Origin: an uncultured Candidatus Saccharibacteria bacterium
GTDB lineage: Bacteria; Patescibacteriota; Minisyncoccia; UBA6257; 2-01-FULL-56-20
Assembly: GCA_964484655.1 (NCBI GenBank)
Contig: CAZAFA010000002.1
Coordinates: 123,860-187,859, forward strand
Length of the DNA: 64,000 nucleotides
Reading direction: 5' to 3'
In this document: positions 4,662-47,974 of the stretch, one piece after another
Layout of the letters: every line of letters begins with the position of its first letter
Position numbering within the stretch: the first letter of the stretch is position 1
Program-made: the position numbers and the translations under genes
The notes under the pieces: generated by a model
The model's database searches: none
Told to the model about the DNA's origin: nothing
Seen by the model: the letters and a program-made list of their open reading frames with translations, nothing else

Positions 4662-5324
4662 CTACCGCGTCCGGTTGAAGTACGCGAGGAACGTGTCCCA
4701 GGGACGGCTCACCTTGCGCAGGCCGCTCGGCATCATGAACGTCGGGCCGTACGTGATGGCGACGACGGCGATCATGCAGAGCACGCCGGTGGCGATGAAG
4801 ACCGTCGGGAAGCCGTACGTGGCCGCAACGACGCCGCCGAGGAGGCCCGAGACGCCGGTGGCGATGCCGCCGACGGACCGGTCGATGGCCCACTCCATGG
4901 CCGTATGGTCCGGATCGACGTGGTGCGTGAAGAGCACGCTCCAGGACGGCACGTAGAGCGCGTAGCCGAGGCCGTTGAGGAACTGGAGCAGGTAGATGTG
5001 CTGCATGGTGGTCGCGAGCGGCGTGAGGAACGCCGCGACGGCCGAGAGGACGAGGCCGAGGACGAGCGCGTGGAAATCGCGCTGCTCGCCAGCCGTCCGG
5101 TCCAGGAACGAGGCGATGGGCACCTGCGCCAGGGCGCGCGTGAACCAGAACACGGCGACCGAGGCGCCGACCGCGCCGAGCGTCCCGCCCGGGATGTTCT
5201 CGAGGATGAAGACGCTCATGATCGGCGTGATCAGCCCCCACCCCGCGAGGAGGGCGAGGTCGGAGAAGATGAGGATCGAGACGATGCGGTTGAGCGTCAG
5301 CCGGTTGCTGGGCTTGGGATCCAT
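4662..5324 (-). CDS. integral membrane protein, MFS-transporter-like 6-TM half
   Basis: Start placed at the internal MDPKPSNR. The upstream 49 codons of the track ORF overlap the neighbouring gene and are Arg-rich. Roughly six hydrophobic helices. Confidence 0.4.
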   Translation of the reverse strand: MDPKPSNRLTLNRIVSILIFSDLALLAGWGLITPIMSVFILENIPGGTLGAVGASVAVFWFTRALAQVPIASFLDRTAGEQRDFHALVLGLVLSAVAAFLTPLATTMQHIYLLQFLNGLGYALYVPSWSVLFTHHVDPDHTAMEWAIDRSVGGIATGVSGLLGGVVAATYGFPTVFIATGVLCMIAVVAITYGPTFMMPSGLRKVSRPWDTFLAYFNRTR

Positions 5325-13713: not shown

Positions 13714-14499
13714 CTAGTACACCGCGAGCGCGACGAGCGCTTCCTCGTGATCCCAGCCGCCCGTCTTGATGGCGAGGTCCCCTGCCGCGGCGGCGGCCGG
13801 GTGCGCGCTGTACGCGGCCATGTTGAACAGCTTGGCGGCAGCCTCTCCCGAGGCCTCGAGGCGCACGAGTAGCGCGAGGCGTGCGGCCGGAGCGCCGATT
13901 CCGAGCTTCCGCAGGTCGGACCAGCTCGGCGCCCCCGCGCCGGCTCCGCGCGCGGTATGCGATATGCGCGATGCACGCATATCGCCAGGCATCGCGGCGA
14001 GCACGTCCAGCTCGGTCGCGACGCCCCAGCTGTCTCCCGGGAAAGCGTACGCCAGCTGCTGCAGCTGCTGACGGTCGAGCGCGAGGCCGCGCGTCTTCGC
14101 CTCGCGCGCAACGAACGTCGCCCACGCGCTGCCGGTCAAGACCGGGAAGGATTCCTGGATGACGTCCGCGGCGAGGAGGCGCGCGTACGCCTTCGTCGGC
14201 TTGTCCGCATCGGCGACGAGGATCAGGTGCAGGTTCTGGCTGTCCGCGGTCCTCGCGACGAGCGGCTCGAGCTGCCTCGCGTCGAGCTTGAGCGTGTCGG
14301 TGAGCACCAGGAGCGTGCGCGGCGAGAACAGCGAGGCGCTGCCCAGTATGTCCGCCGCTTTCCCCGCCGCGTCCTCGTCGAGTTCCGCGTCGAGGCGGCG
14401 GACACCCACGCCCGGATACTTCTTCAGGAACTGGTCGAGGAGAATGCGCAGGCGCTGGCTCCGCCGGTACCCGTCGCTGCCGTGGAGGAATATCGTCAC
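13714..14499 (-). CDS. DNA polymerase III delta subunit-like
   Basis: Size and position (overlaps the ruvB stop) and weak HolA-like N-terminal pattern (LHGSDGY...LLDQF). Low sequence certainty. Confidence 0.5.
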   Translation of the reverse strand: MTIFLHGSDGYRRSQRLRILLDQFLKKYPGVGVRRLDAELDEDAAGKAADILGSASLFSPRTLLVLTDTLKLDARQLEPLVARTADSQNLHLILVADADKPTKAYARLLAADVIQESFPVLTGSAWATFVAREAKTRGLALDRQQLQQLAYAFPGDSWGVATELDVLAAMPGDMRASRISHTARGAGAGAPSWSDLRKLGIGAPAARLALLVRLEASGEAAAKLFNMAAYSAHPAAAAAGDLAIKTGGWDHEEALVALAVY

Positions 14500-15497
14500 A
14501 GGAGCGGTCCCCGTTCCGGGTGCTGCAGGCCGAGATGCTGGTACGCGGCCGGAAGCAGGACGCGGCCGGCGGTCGTGCGCTGGAGGAAGCCCAGGGACAT
14601 GAGGAACGGCTCGTAGATCTCCTCGATGACGCCCCTATCCTCGGAAAGCGCGGCAGAGAGCGTGGCGATGCCGACCGGTCCCCCGTCGTACTTCTCCGCG
14701 ATCGTGCGCAGAAGCATCCGGTCCTGCGGCTCGAGGCCGCGGTGGTCGACGTCGAGGAGCTTGAGCGTCTCCTGCGCCGCCTCGAGATCGATGGCCGGCC
14801 GGCCGAGCACGTCGGCGTAGTCGCGCGCGCGGCGGAGCAGCCGGTTAGCGACGCGCGGCGTCGCGCGCGCGGCTCCCGCGAGGCATGCCGCCGCCTCGGG
14901 CGTGATTGCGGTGCCGAGCAGGCCGGCGTTGCGCTCGATGATCTGCTGGATCTCACCGGCGTCGTAGTAGTCGAGGCGGAGGATGGCGCCGAAGCGGGTG
15001 CGCAGCGGATGCGAGAGCAGGTTTTCGCGCGTGGTCGCGCCCAGGAGCGTGAACGGCGGCAGGTCGATCACGAGGCTGCGCGCGCTCGGCCCCTTGCCGA
15101 CGACAATCGGCAGCTTGCGCGATTCCATGGCGGGATAGAGGACCTCCTCGATCGCGCGGTTCATGCGATGGATCTCGTCGATGAAGAGGACGTCGCCCGG
15201 CTCGAGGTTGGTCAGTAACGCAGCGAGGTCGCCGGCGCGCTCGAGCGCGGGACCGCTCGTCAGGCGCAGCTGCGATCCCGTCGTCTTCGCGGCGAGGAGC
15301 GCGAGCGTCGTCTTGCCGAGGCCCGCGGGCCCGGCGAAGAGGAGATGGTCCATCGGCTCGCCGCGCTTGGCGGCCGCGTCGATCATCATGCGGAGGTTCC
15401 GCTTGGTCGTCGGCTGCCCGACGTACTCCTCCCAGGCGCCCGGCCGGAGGGCCTGGTCGAACTCTTCTGGCTGGGAGGTGCTGGAAACGGGCTCCAT
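14496..15497 (-). CDS. ruvB: Holliday junction branch migration helicase RuvB
   Basis: LLFAGPAGLGKTTLA Walker A, LFIDEIHR Walker B, RuvB C-terminal winged helix. Confidence 0.95.
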   Translation of the reverse strand: MEPVSSTSQPEEFDQALRPGAWEEYVGQPTTKRNLRMMIDAAAKRGEPMDHLLFAGPAGLGKTTLALLAAKTTGSQLRLTSGPALERAGDLAALLTNLEPGDVLFIDEIHRMNRAIEEVLYPAMESRKLPIVVGKGPSARSLVIDLPPFTLLGATTRENLLSHPLRTRFGAILRLDYYDAGEIQQIIERNAGLLGTAITPEAAACLAGAARATPRVANRLLRRARDYADVLGRPAIDLEAAQETLKLLDVDHRGLEPQDRMLLRTIAEKYDGGPVGIATLSAALSEDRGVIEEIYEPFLMSLGFLQRTTAGRVLLPAAYQHLGLQHPERGPLL

Positions 15498-15537
15498 ACG
15501 CGCGAAAAATACCAGTTTCTAGGCAGCTCCCACCATA

Positions 15538-15566
15538 TTGACAATTATCCACCGATGTACTAGGAT
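15538..15566 (+). promoter_or_regulatory. sigma70-like promoter (TTGACA-N17-TAGGAT)
   Basis: Located in an AT-richer intergenic region divergent from ruvB. Confidence 0.4.
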
Positions 15567-15572
15567 ACCGTT

Positions 15573-15850
15573 GTTCCGACCAGAACTACGTTCTTTCTGA
15601 CCTGGGGGCAGGATGTGGCCTTCAGTCCCTAGGATGATCCGGTTTCGGCTAGGTCATTCCTCGAGGCGCATCCATTTCTTCCGACCTGCTCGGAAGTTAC
15701 CACTCTTTCGCGTGTCCCCAGGTCAGAGGGAAAGTCATTGGAACAAGAACGCTCACCGCACGTTGCGTGAGCCCGAAATGAAATAAAGACTGACACCCGA
15801 ACACAATTGTGAAGAGCCCCCGCTGCGAAGCGGGGGCTCTTGTTCCTCTT
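15573..15850 (+). ncRNA. candidate structured ncRNA (about 280 nt, unidentified)
   Basis: Lies between the promoter-like element and a GC hairpin + U-tract (GAGCCCCCGC-TGCGAA-GCGGGGGCTC TTGTTCCTCTTT). Long-range 11-nt complementarity CTGACCTGGGG (about 15598) with CCCCAGGTCAG (about 15716). Several perfect local hairpins (CTTCCGA-CCTGC-TCGGAAG). No convincing start codon or RBS. Confidence 0.35.
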
Positions 15851-16159
15851 TATGCTCCCTTTATCGGTCTCCTGCAATGGTGCGCGGCACAGCTCATCGC
15901 CTACCTCGACCGGAAGTTCGCCTCTCTCGAGGATATCTTCGCGACCAAGGAAGAATTGCATGATCTTGAATCCTGGTTGATGCTCAGGTTTCGAAAGATC
16001 GATGAGAAATTCGACGCACTCACTGGCTATCTCGACAAGCAGACGACGGAGATGAAGACGTTCTATCAGGAGCTCGCGATGACGCAGGGCCGGGTGGACC
16101 GGCGTGAGCGCTGGCACCATGCGGTCGCCGACAAGCTCGGCATGAAGCTCGAAAGCTGA
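15809..16159 (+). CDS. small hypothetical coiled-coil protein (possibly only the distal about 59 codons, from MLRFRK at about 15980)
   Basis: The GTG start in the track lies inside the terminator hairpin. The distal part has protein-like charged/helical composition. Followed by a strong terminator. Confidence 0.3.
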   Translation: MKSPRCEAGALVPLYAPFIGLLQWCAAQLIAYLDRKFASLEDIFATKEELHDLESWLMLRFRKIDEKFDALTGYLDKQTTEMKTFYQELAMTQGRVDRRERWHHAVADKLGMKLES

Positions 16160-16160
16160 A

Positions 16161-16192
16161 GAAGCGGCGCTCGTGGCGCCGCTTCTTTCTCC
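16161..16192. terminator. bidirectional rho-independent terminator
   Basis: GAAGCGGCGC-TCGTG-GCGCCGCTTC followed by TTTCTCC; sits between convergent genes. Confidence 0.65.
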
Positions 16193-16195
16193 GTC

Positions 16196-16621
16196 TTACG
16201 CAATCATGCTCTCAGCGAGCAGGGCGCGGACAACATTCTCGGTAATCGCGGAAAGGGTCAGGTCGGTCCGGTGGGACCGATACCAGTGCATATCCGTTAT
16301 CTCGGCGCCGTAGCGTCCGAAGTTCCCCACCCTATGCGCCTCGTAGGGCAGCAGGTAGGTCCGCGAGGACATCGGACGGCCCGAGTGCGAGCCATTGCCG
16401 AGGAATGTCCGCCAGTACTGGGCTGATTCGGGATTCCAGGAGAAGTCGGGAAGCTCCTCGGATAGCTCGCGCTGCAGGCACGCTAGGTCGTCCTCGACCG
16501 CTTCGATCTTCCCGCCGGGAAGGATGCAGATACCTCCCTTCTCGACCAGGAGAAGGTTCCTGTGCCGGTCCGTGATAACCAGATGCGCGCACGGAACCGG
16601 TTCTGATGCTTGATTTTCCAT
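16196..16621 (-). CDS. NUDIX hydrolase
   Basis: Nudix box GGKIEAVEDDLACLQRELSEEL. Confidence 0.75.
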   Translation of the reverse strand: MENQASEPVPCAHLVITDRHRNLLLVEKGGICILPGGKIEAVEDDLACLQRELSEELPDFSWNPESAQYWRTFLGNGSHSGRPMSSRTYLLPYEAHRVGNFGRYGAEITDMHWYRSHRTDLTLSAITENVVRALLAESMIA

Positions 16622-16695
16622 ATTCGATTTTCCTCACACGTAGAAATTGAGCCTTAGCTGGCCTCATACAAGCGCTCGGGGAGCAGGCGGTCAAG

Positions 16696-18354
16696 CTAGA
16701 CGATCGGACCCGTCACGGAGACCACCTCGTCGATCGTCGTCAGTCCCAGGATCGCCTTGAGGAGCCCGTCGTACTGCATCGGTACCATCCCCTGCCTGCC
16801 GGCGATCTCCGTGATCTGGAGACCGGAGATCTCCTTGCCGATCGCCGCCTGGATCTCTGAAGTCACCTGGAGGAACTCGAAGATCGCCTTGCGACCCTTG
16901 TAGCCGAACCCGTTGCAGACGTCGCAGCCGACCGGCACGTACTCCACGCCTTTCGCGAGCGCTTCCTCGTAGGGCGCGCGATCCACGCGGGGCGGGAGCT
17001 TCTCGAGCACGGCCTTGAGCTTCTCCTGCATCGCGGGGTCGCGCGGCTGCTCCTTCTTGCAGGCGCAGAGGATGCGGACGAGACGCTGCGCGATGACGAC
17101 GTTGACCGCCGGCGCGATCGTCGCCGGACGCACGCCGAGGTCGACCAGGCGCGGGATCGCGCCTGCCGCGTCGTTGGTGTGCAGCGTCGAGAAGACGAGG
17201 TGTCCGGTGAGCGCTGCCTGGAGCGCGGTCTCCGCGGTCTCGCCGTCGCGGATCTCGCCGACGAGGATGACGTCAGGATCCTGGCGCAGGATGCTGCGCA
17301 GGCCGGACGCGAACGTGTAGCCGCCTTCGGGGTCGACCTGCGTCTGGTCGATGCCGGCCAGCTTGTACTCGATCGGATCCTCGATCGTGATGACCTTCAC
17401 CTCGGGCGAGTTGATGTGCTTGAGGAAGCTGTAGAGCGTCGTCGTCTTTCCGGATCCGGTCGGGCCCGTGTTGAGCACGATGCCGTTCGGCCGCCCGAGC
17501 TCCTGCAGGATGAGCTCCTCGTCGTCCTTGCGCAGGCCGAGGTTCGCGACCTCGACGGAGAGGGATTCCGGATCGAGGACGCGCATGACGATGACCTCGC
17601 CGTTGTCGGACGGGATGATCGAGACGCGCACTTCCGCGCTGGTTCCCGTCGCGAGGTTGATCGTGAAGCGCCCGTCCTGCGCTTCGCTGCGCACGTTGAG
17701 CTTGAGGCTACTCAGGAGCTTGATGCGGTTGGTCAGCGTGATGAAGGTATGGCGCGGCAGGGGCGCTACGTCGTGCAGGATGCCGTCGATGCGCAGACGC
17801 AGGAGCGCGCCCTCGTCCTTCGCCTCGAGGTGGATGTCGCTCGCCTTGCTCGCGAGCGCGCCGGAGGCGACCCACTGGAAGAGCTCGGTCGTGGAGAGGG
17901 TGGAGAAATCCGCGGCCTTGAGGCGATCCTGGAGGTCCTGGAACGAGGACGGCTGGTCCGGCCCGCCTACCTTCACGTCGCCTGTGATGTCCTCCACCTG
18001 CTTCGGGACGAACTTGTAGAACGCCTGCGCCTCGGCGATCGCGTCTTCCGAAGCCAGGAACAGCTTGGTGGTGAACCCCTCGCTCTTGAGCTGCGTCACG
18101 CGGGCCTGCACCTCCGCGCTCGTCGGATGCGAGGCGGCGAGCGCCACGACGCGGTCCTTGCGCTCGATCGCCACGAGTCCGAGCTTCTGCGAATCCGCCT
18201 CCGGGATGACGCCGAGCGCCTCGATGGATACCGGCGCCTTGCGGATGTCCACGTAGGGGACGCCGAGGTGCTCGGCGCGCTGCTGCGCGTCCCGCTCCTC
18301 GGAATCCCGCCTGATGGAGGCGAGCTTGCTCTGGATATCGTCCGGATCGGGCAT
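16696..18354 (-). CDS. pilB: GspE/PilB-family secretion/type IV pilus assembly ATPase
   Basis: N-terminal GSPII_E-like domain, Walker A LNTGPTGSGKTTTLYS, His/Asp boxes, C-terminal tetracysteine CxxC..CxxC; 552 aa. Confidence 0.85.
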   Translation of the reverse strand: MPDPDDIQSKLASIRRDSEERDAQQRAEHLGVPYVDIRKAPVSIEALGVIPEADSQKLGLVAIERKDRVVALAASHPTSAEVQARVTQLKSEGFTTKLFLASEDAIAEAQAFYKFVPKQVEDITGDVKVGGPDQPSSFQDLQDRLKAADFSTLSTTELFQWVASGALASKASDIHLEAKDEGALLRLRIDGILHDVAPLPRHTFITLTNRIKLLSSLKLNVRSEAQDGRFTINLATGTSAEVRVSIIPSDNGEVIVMRVLDPESLSVEVANLGLRKDDEELILQELGRPNGIVLNTGPTGSGKTTTLYSFLKHINSPEVKVITIEDPIEYKLAGIDQTQVDPEGGYTFASGLRSILRQDPDVILVGEIRDGETAETALQAALTGHLVFSTLHTNDAAGAIPRLVDLGVRPATIAPAVNVVIAQRLVRILCACKKEQPRDPAMQEKLKAVLEKLPPRVDRAPYEEALAKGVEYVPVGCDVCNGFGYKGRKAIFEFLQVTSEIQAAIGKEISGLQITEIAGRQGMVPMQYDGLLKAILGLTTIDEVVSVTGPIV

Positions 18355-47897: not shown

Positions 47898-47971
47898 GGC
47901 ACCCATAGCTCAACGGTTAGAGCAGTCGTCTTATACACGACCGGTTCCTGGTTCGAGTCCAGGTGGGTGCA
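47898..47971 (+). tRNA. tRNA with anticodon TAT (Ile-UAU type)
   Basis: Acceptor GCACCCA/TGGGTGC, D-arm GCTC-AACGGTTA-GAGC, anticodon arm GTCGT-CTTATAC-ACGAC, T-arm CCTGG-TTCGAGT-CCAGG, discriminator A; CCA not encoded. Confidence 0.7.
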
Positions 47972-47974
47972 CAG

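Follow-up and report, generated by a model that had tools for sequence, protein, structure and literature searches.

A probable new family of structured non-coding RNA beside ruvB in Paceibacteria

Comparative genomics has brought to light a number of orphan structured non-coding RNAs (ncRNAs) in bacteria, including the raiA motif RNA and other motifs described by the Breaker and Weinberg laboratories. Even a long-established ncRNA such as 6S RNA is poorly conserved in sequence and often missed, and among riboswitches the TPP (thiamine pyrophosphate) aptamer offers an example of a three-way junction. The Patescibacteria, or candidate phyla radiation (CPR), possess tiny genomes with little room for non-essential DNA, and to our knowledge almost nothing is known about their ncRNAs. 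The subject of this report is a low-GC stretch directly upstream of ruvB, on the opposite strand, in a 64,000-nt window of contig CAZAFA010000002.1 from an uncultured Candidatus Saccharibacteria bacterium (all positions below are those of this window). Going by the source names of its RuvB relatives, the organism is a CPR bacterium of the Paceibacteria/Parcubacteria type. Judging from the window and its relatives, positions ~15573-15851 (+) very probably encode a real, independent structured ncRNA of an uncatalogued family. In Paceibacteria the family keeps to a single site, flanked by ruvB on one side and a pilB-like T2SSE ATPase gene on the other, and is divergent from ruvB. It is a new family of a known kind, the structured bacterial small RNA (sRNA).

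The RNA shares with raiA-type orphan ncRNAs a restricted lineage, a length in the range of 150-300 nt, multiple stems, covariation, its own promoter and terminator, and conserved nucleotides at the junction. It differs from them in matching nothing in Rfam 15, in belonging to the Patescibacteria/CPR, and in the fixed synteny of pilB-like ATPase, RNA and ruvB. Like 6S RNA (ssrS; RF00013), it is a stand-alone, non-coding and strongly promoted element of a few hundred nt, whose distal segments form a closing stem and whose structure is conserved more than its sequence. Unlike 6S RNA, which binds the sigma-70 holoenzyme and templates pRNA synthesis, it is a three-way junction and has no known link to RNA polymerase. 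Three-way-junction riboswitch aptamers such as TPP resemble it in their three helices and in the invariant nucleotides adjoining the junction, but the RNA of the window family mostly lacks a co-directional gene and carries an extra hairpin and linker between junction and terminator. More generally, the locus has the features of a stand-alone sRNA gene, namely its own promoter and terminator, no conserved open reading frame (ORF), and a covarying structure. No description of such an RNA was found in the literature searched.

Structure, conservation and range of the RNA

An earlier, sequence-only reading of the window had proposed a promoter, TTGACA-N17-TAGGAT, ahead of the structured stretch. 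This promoter is indeed present and is the sole sigma-70-like site within 15300-16800, and the form TTGACA-N17-TAnnAT is kept in all ten distinct Paceibacteria relatives. Downstream of it, a fold of -123.5 kcal/mol was computed for 15572-15852 on the + strand, much better than shuffles (z = -6.9) and also better than the - strand (z = -4.2). A perfect 11-nt long-range pairing picked out by the same reading also held up, with CTGACCTGGGG at 15597-15607 having its exact complement at 15716-15726 and enclosing 108 nt; chance would supply 0.03 such matches per window. The pairing is part of an imperfect 23-nt stem (15588-15610 with 15713-15735) and itself contains a compensatory change, the ACC/GGU of the window being AUC/GAU in most relatives.

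The relatives were obtained by fetching contigs for RuvB proteins of 65-89% identity (Paceibacteria/Parcubacteria), which yielded ten distinct loci. Every one of them has a gap of 300-460 nt upstream of ruvB, with a promoter and a homologous RNA on the opposite strand. The gaps were reverse-complemented and aligned with window positions 15498-15900, and the covariation analysis of homologous intergenic regions that the earlier reading had recommended supported the fold. On the 150-nt core (alignment A5), RNAalifold placed 46 pairs, 25 of which show compensatory changes, and covarying pairs were found in all four core helices. Paired cells made up 96.2% vs 81.8 +/- 1.1% in shuffles, and 79 double-change cells were observed where 26.5 +/- 4.8 were expected; none of 500 shuffles reached the observed value on any of five measures. 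As a control, the 3′ partners were slid by 1-3 columns, which left pairing at 35-56% and 4-13 double-change pairs. Each homolog folded alone by minimum energy gave the same three-way junction, and four distant sequences keep the fold at about 50% identity in the core. With a covariance model of the core, R1, the RNA strand obtains 105-165 bits and the reverse strand 25-33. The window, which has a single copy of the element, scores 150.9 bits (+) and 25.6 bits (-) in cmsearch.

The junction (Table 1) is closed by P1, a long stem with an invariant CUGGGG/CCCCAG and compensatory changes in eight of its 19 pairs. A single unpaired A separates P1 from P2 on the 5′ strand. The basal helix of P2 covaries in 7 of 11 pairs and leads to an asymmetric internal loop of 5-8 nt (CAGUCCCU in the window and UUAGUCUC in most relatives), above which stand the invariant AGGA/UCCU helix and, within GGUUUCGGC, a UNCG-type cap. 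J2/3 is short. P3 follows, and then J3/1, which is invariant among the seven close relatives and different in distant ones. Outside the core, a hairpin of 4-7 bp and differing sequence occurs right before P1 in seven of seven close relatives (read by eye, unscored), and P4, in the 3′ domain, has eight pairs with compensatory changes in three among the same seven. Invariant nucleotides cluster in the helices abutting the junction and in the P2 arm, with P3 and the outer part of P1 free to covary; the junction helix ends CUGGGGRCAGG, UCCA and CCCCAG are invariant beyond the needs of base pairing.

The RNA gene ends in an intrinsic terminator. The GC-rich hairpin and U-tract noted in the earlier reading are real, although their position, given there as 15823-15850, was slightly off, with the hairpin itself at 15812-15841. 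A hairpin of other sequence is found at the terminator position in all seven close-clade members and in the loci L098, L099, L026 and L012; it was not seen in the stretch of L096 that was read, and is weak in L101. In the window, the segment after P1 (15740-15748) shows perfect 9-nt complementarity to the 3′ arm and tail of the terminator (15838-15846), and this pairing could compete with terminator formation. It is confined to the window and not kept in relatives, no systematic search for antiterminators having been made.

Comparison with neighbouring genes shows that the RNA is under strong purifying selection. Relative to the sibling strain L001, the RNA has a single difference in 228 nt and the NUDIX gene 17 in 370, of which 14 are at third codon positions. 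Within the close clade the RNA core is 80-91% identical, and ruvB third positions are 42-68% identical. Divergence of the RNA follows that of RuvB, and the RNA gene is apparently vertically inherited.

To gauge its range, R1 and a second model built on the P2 arm (R2) were run against 80 diverse ruvB loci (1.1 Mb). R1 matched only two, a Saccharibacteria metagenome-assembled genome (MAG; L026) and a MAG labelled Bdellovibrionales (L012), with E values of ~1e-4 when the search was small and unfiltered and of 2e-3 to 3e-3 when it spanned 1.1 Mb, and neither model found anything further among the 80. With R2 the window scores 77 bits, L012 53 and L026 41, the last two scores being partly circular since both sequences were included when the model was built. 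Both matches lie directly upstream of ruvB on the opposite strand, each with its own terminator and a TTGACA promoter (TTGACA-N16/17-TATATT/TACTAT), and both have a T2SSE ATPase gene on the other side, which is the synteny of Paceibacteria. By minimum energy L026 folds into this three-way junction as well; the likeness of L012 is clear in the P2 arm only. The same family probably occupies the same position in Saccharibacteria and other Patescibacteria.

Other ways of finding relatives were less productive. A RuvB scan of genome contigs returned matches of no more than 56% identity from unrelated phyla and no close relatives, although L026 and L012 were among its loci. A scan of metagenome contigs with the NUDIX protein returned one irrelevant locus, and a regular expression for the apical motif lacked the specificity to be of help. 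Upstream of ruvB, a goat-gut Saccharibacteria MAG (L063, ~4860-4990, - strand) has a rod-like structured stretch of another kind, ~130 nt long. Its closing stem is AACUUUUCUUC...GAAGAAAAGUU, R1 and R2 do not match it, and its neighbour is dnaK, not pilB.

Table 1. Positions of the RNA gene, its structural elements and the neighbouring features in the window
Feature	Position	Strand	Basis or remark
ruvB	14496-15497	-	Divergent neighbour at every RNA-carrying locus
RNA-gene promoter	15538-15566	+	-35 TTGACA 15538-15543, 17-nt spacer, -10 TAGGAT 15561-15566
Structured ncRNA, predicted transcript of ~280 nt	15573-15851	+	Fold z-score; homologs in all relatives
P0, small 5′ hairpin (GUUC...GAAC)	15573-15586	+	Read off sequences, unscored
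Three-way-junction core, ~150 nt (covariance model R1)	15588-15737	+	Alignment A5, RNAalifold, pair counts
P1, 5′ strand, CGUUCUUUCUGACCUGGGGGCA	15589-15610	+	Includes the 11-mer and the invariant CUGGGG
P2 arm	15611-15673	+	Basal helix, asymmetric internal loop, AGGA/UCCU helix, upper helix, apical GGUUUCGGC
P3 hairpin	15678-15696	+	Variable in sequence; 5 of 5 pairs covary
J3/1, C/U-rich single strand of 16 nt, UUACCACUCUUUCGCG	15697-15712	+	Alignment
P1, 3′ strand, UGUCCCCAGGUCAGAGGGAAAGU	15713-15735	+	Stem and pair counts
P4 hairpin of the 3′ domain, GCUCACCGC...GCGUGAGC	15751-15772	+	Full-length close-clade alignment
A-rich single-stranded linker	15773-15811	+	Semi-conserved AGAC...GAAC, read from the alignment without statistics
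Annotated ORF, 116 codons from GTG	15809-16159	+	N-terminus non-homologous, read through the terminator
Intrinsic terminator of the RNA gene	15812-15851	+	13-bp perfect GC-rich hairpin 15812-15841, then U-rich tail GTTCCTCTTT
ORF cassette, ~340 nt with its own hairpin	15852-16195	+	Insertion relative to L088
Conserved part of the ORF, AQLIAYLDRKF... to stop	15887-16159	+	Homolog alignment
Second hairpin	16159-16187		12 bp, perfect; between convergent ORF and NUDIX gene, directly after the ORF stop
NUDIX hydrolase gene	16196-16621	-	Flanking gene
pilB-like T2SSE ATPase gene	16696-18354	-	Flanking gene

Alternative identities and the proposed mode of action

The sequence-only reading had offered an sRNA, possibly like 6S, signal recognition particle (SRP) or RNase P RNA; a riboswitch or attenuator leader; or a horizontally acquired sRNA-protein pair. 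The sRNA is the identity that fits: the promoter is conserved, the structure covaries, and most relatives have a terminator. Kinship with the known housekeeping RNAs did not survive the Rfam scan for 6S, SRP, RNase P and transfer-messenger RNA (tmRNA) that had been suggested as a check. At gathering thresholds, Rfam 15 yielded four tRNAs only in the 64-kb window; at E<=10 with permissive filters it yielded only terminator look-alikes in the region; and at E<=10 it gave no 6S, SRP, RNase P, tmRNA or riboswitch match in five homologous loci (L097, L087, L098, L012 and L026). ARAGORN likewise called four tRNAs in the window and no tmRNA, the hallmarks of which are a tRNA-like domain and a reading frame for the tag peptide. 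That the element is a highly diverged 6S, SRP, RNase P or tmRNA which the Rfam models fail to recognise is nonetheless conceivable in view of its strong constitutive-type promoter, its conservation across deep lineages, its 210-315 nt from start to terminator and the way in which distant segments build a long closing stem. This is quite improbable, however, given the negative results at all six loci and the structure itself. 6S RNA is a rod with a two-sided central bubble that mimics an open promoter. Here the consensus fold has three helices meeting at a junction and no break in the 5′ strand, P1 passing straight into the covarying basal helix of P2. The apical loop is UNCG-type (UUCG/UCCG) and not GNRA, and no GNRA-capped domain IV of the SRP kind was seen. 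A string at 15726-15738, AGAGGGAAAGUCA, resembles the CR-I motif GAGGAAAGUCC, which together with CR-V supplies the conserved P4 strands of RNase P RNA, but is not conserved in L096, L098, L099 and L101; in the close clade it is merely the 3′ strand of P1. Several further candidates were also set aside, chiefly on the ground that each locus has one copy of the element, always at the same syntenic position: a miniature inverted-repeat transposable element or some other inverted repeat at the DNA level (the 64 kb contain one copy, and pairing is kept strand-specifically via G-U pairs), a retron msr/msd (no reverse transcriptase nearby), and an omega, bridge or tracr-type guide RNA (no associated nuclease or recombinase gene).

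Other readings turn on the small ORF that follows the RNA. Were the 280 nt a cis-regulatory leader controlling this coiled-coil ORF via the terminator at 15812-15841, one could point to promoter, structured domain, terminator and ORF being co-directional, to the lack of a visible separate ORF promoter, and to a junction whose invariant nucleotides resemble those of an aptamer. The ORF, however, is found only in the window strain and L001, and the gene downstream of the RNA is elsewhere a 172-aa protein, NUDIX, a 150-aa protein, HIT or T2SSE, convergent in 8 of 12 other loci. A downstream neighbour that changes from relative to relative, and mostly faces the RNA, speaks against a leader or riboswitch. 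Some 75 nt and a conserved hairpin also intervene between junction and terminator, no conserved alternative pairing was found (no systematic search was made), and the riboswitch families in Rfam gave no match. The leader is very unlikely, synteny having gone most of the way to refuting it. That the island is an sRNA-protein module acquired horizontally (toxin-antitoxin, defence or phage remnant) is scarcely credible. Both parts are low in GC, and members of the ORF family occur patchily, evolve fast and vary in their repeat region, with weak PHROG matches (E ~1e-3), but the RNA holds the same syntenic position in all relatives, its divergence tracks that of RuvB, and only the ORF cassette is lineage-specific. 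What remains of the acquired pair is its protein half, as the cassette looks inserted and is absent in L088. A blastn search of 50,697 phage records gave no match, and two pattern matches in viral contigs, lying inside ORFs and with no covariance-model score, were put down to chance. Finally, the region could be protein-coding, through either the 116-codon ORF from GTG 15809 or a 57-codon ORF at 15613-15786, and this too is hard to believe. Both ORFs exist, and gene callers annotated the 116-aa product in three assemblies. Its first 26 residues, however, lack a counterpart, homologs starting at MxxDxSELxxYLDxKF; the L001 frame upstream of the ATG meets a stop at L001 186-188 (read from sequence); and GTG 15809 lacks a Shine-Dalgarno sequence and lies at the base of the 13-bp GC hairpin. 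In relatives, 1-nt indels disrupt the frame of the 57-codon ORF, and L090 and L092 have lost its ATG (GGAUGU to GGGCAC).

With regard to its mode of action, the independent RNA favoured here would act in trans, as an abundant, ribonucleoprotein (RNP)-forming molecule of the housekeeping type and not as a cis-regulator. Its invariant junction ends, its strong constitutive-type promoter and its vertical inheritance all point to a trans-acting protein-binding RNA. A clustering of invariant nucleotides in the helices around the junction and in the P2 arm is typical of protein-bound RNAs or specific tertiary cores, and not of seed-pairing sRNAs. The protein-binding mode is advanced tentatively, its probability falling a little short of even. 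A base-pairing regulatory sRNA, in which the junction would be a scaffold and either J3/1 (15697-15712) or the A-rich linker (15773-15811) the seed, is rather unlikely but has something to recommend it. J3/1 is C/U-rich in L098 and L099 as well as being invariant in the seven relatives, the linker carries its semi-conserved AGAC...GAAC, and the 5′ hairpin and terminator are typical of sRNAs. Yet across the whole family, sequence is conserved most strongly in the P2 arm and in paired nucleotides close to the junction rather than in any unpaired segment; L096 and L101 have an unrelated J3/1, and L026 has hardly any.

A number of points weigh against a conserved, protein-binding RNA gene. The family consists of 11 distinct members and two weak ones, and with seven of them closely related, some of the compensatory counts reflect shared ancestry, which also inflates the cell counts. 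A search for pseudoknots that would pair the P2 internal loop with J3/1, with J2/3 or with the loop of P3 gave no stable or consistent duplex. Near ruvB, R1 and R2 have no match in L031 and L063 (Saccharibacteria) or in L013 (a Doudnabacteria MAG), and the family is either not universal in Patescibacteria or located elsewhere in these genomes. The taxonomic placement of the L012 MAG (CAYYET010000017.1) is uncertain; either its Bdellovibrionales label is doubtful or the RNA reaches beyond the CPR. As to the transcript, a 5′ end 6-8 nt past the -10 box, a 3′ end at the U-tract after the terminator, and the presumed abundance of the RNA are all predictions from sequence features. The protein-binding housekeeping role would be a best guess from the pattern of conservation.

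The adjoining ORF and other features of the locus

A hydrophilic ORF of 59-116 codons had also been predicted behind the RNA, and it exists, with 116 codons when read from the GTG at 15809 and 59 when read from an ATG at 15981; a TTG at 15957 and another at 15978 are the other later in-frame starts. It is present only in the window strain and its sibling L001, whose P0002 (101 aa, N-terminus METAQLIAYLDRKF) is the sole close homolog of the 116-aa product. Where L001 has CATGGAGACC (262-271), the window has a 10-nt deletion, between 15886 and 15887, and therefore the ATG is lost and the frame upstream shifted, remaining open by chance to the GTG 15809 in the terminator. This deletion is not an assembly error, since gene calls from three independent assemblies (the NCBI MAG, SRR11845634 and SRR11845619) agree on the 116-aa product. 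The 116-codon reading from the terminator GTG accordingly looks like a frame accident. The first 27 conserved residues are identical between the window and L001 despite five synonymous differences, and so the ORF was under purifying selection until recently; in its present form it would be either a fresh pseudogene or a gene with a non-canonical start.

An exhaustive profile-free search recovered 58 representative clusters, whose proteins of 80-135 aa can be aligned over their full length. This unannotated family (P0125-P0178, P0123 and P0124) comprises coiled-coil proteins of ~100 aa with conserved ends, starting with MxxDxSELxEYLDxKF and ending with ...VDRHEKWxHQIAEKLGxKLEY; how many short helical, IDxRF-like repeats they carry varies. 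In two giant proteins, of 1048 and 2965 aa, similarity to the ORF recurs in 8-9 separate stretches. Searches of Pfam, PHROGs and PDB sequences with the ORF and its family produced only sub-threshold coiled-coil noise. The nearest solved chain, at a weak E = 0.004, is 7o97_A, a hypothetical protein of Candidatus Giovannonibacteria, which is similar in having ~100 aa and mostly helical repeats; no Pfam family passes threshold for the ORF, and the similarity is probably one of coiled-coil composition alone.

The cassette that contains the ORF is an insertion in the window lineage, because in L088 the orthologous NUDIX gene (51% identity) ends ~20 nt past the RNA terminator. A sigma-70 scan of 15300-16800 showed no promoter ahead of the cassette, and expression of the ORF would therefore depend on read-through of the terminator. 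Of the second strong terminator that had been placed after the ORF, the 12-bp hairpin is present (16159-16187), and its region shares 35 of 36 nt with L001; its T-run is too weak to be detected by the terminator scanner. This hairpin is probably a bidirectional terminator.

The low GC content that had drawn attention to the region was borne out, at 0.52-0.56 over 15500-16000 compared with 0.67-0.76 in ruvB and 0.62-0.72 in the sequence to the right. The island has an ordinary explanation, an RNA gene together with a small inserted accessory gene. In the window and its relatives, the GC of the RNA core is 0.43-0.60 where that of the locus is 0.48-0.66; because core GC follows genome GC only weakly, the RNA forms a low-GC patch in a 66% GC genome.

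On the other side of the RNA promoter, the -35 box is 40 nt from the start codon of ruvB. The interval (15498-15537, - strand) is a conserved non-coding block that is also found in L085, L089, L090 and L092, and its ruvB strand carries TTGGTAC / TGGTATTTT (window 15514-15506), 8 nt ahead of the ATG. It is tempting to speculate that this motif may be the extended -10 element of a nearly leaderless ruvB mRNA, with its promoter back to back with that of the RNA, and that such a layout may couple the two promoters. Elsewhere in the window, ARAGORN called a tRNA-Ile with anticodon TAT (UAU) at 47899-47972 (+), which also matches the Rfam tRNA model. In bacteria, AUA is more often decoded by a modified CAU anticodon.

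Significance for the Patescibacteria

Its covarying 150-nt core with invariant junction nucleotides, its near-consensus promoter and the retention of its position down to 65% RuvB identity, and probably across classes, strongly recommend it as a candidate functional RNA specific to the lineage, and its definition is sharp enough for a new RNA family entry. There is also a gain for annotation, given that the 116-aa "protein" of three assemblies runs through the RNA terminator. For experimentalists working with cultivable Saccharibacteria, it offers a concrete target. A more far-reaching possibility, and a doubtful one as it stands, is that of an abundant core RNA of the housekeeping type in the Patescibacteria/CPR, with a new three-way-junction fold, which forms an RNP and has been inherited vertically at the pilB-ruvB position since before the split of Paceibacteria and Saccharibacteria. 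If this were true, the core RNA could replace a regulator missing from these reduced genomes, whether 6S-like or another global RNA, or it could alternatively serve the DNA-uptake and recombination genes that flank it.

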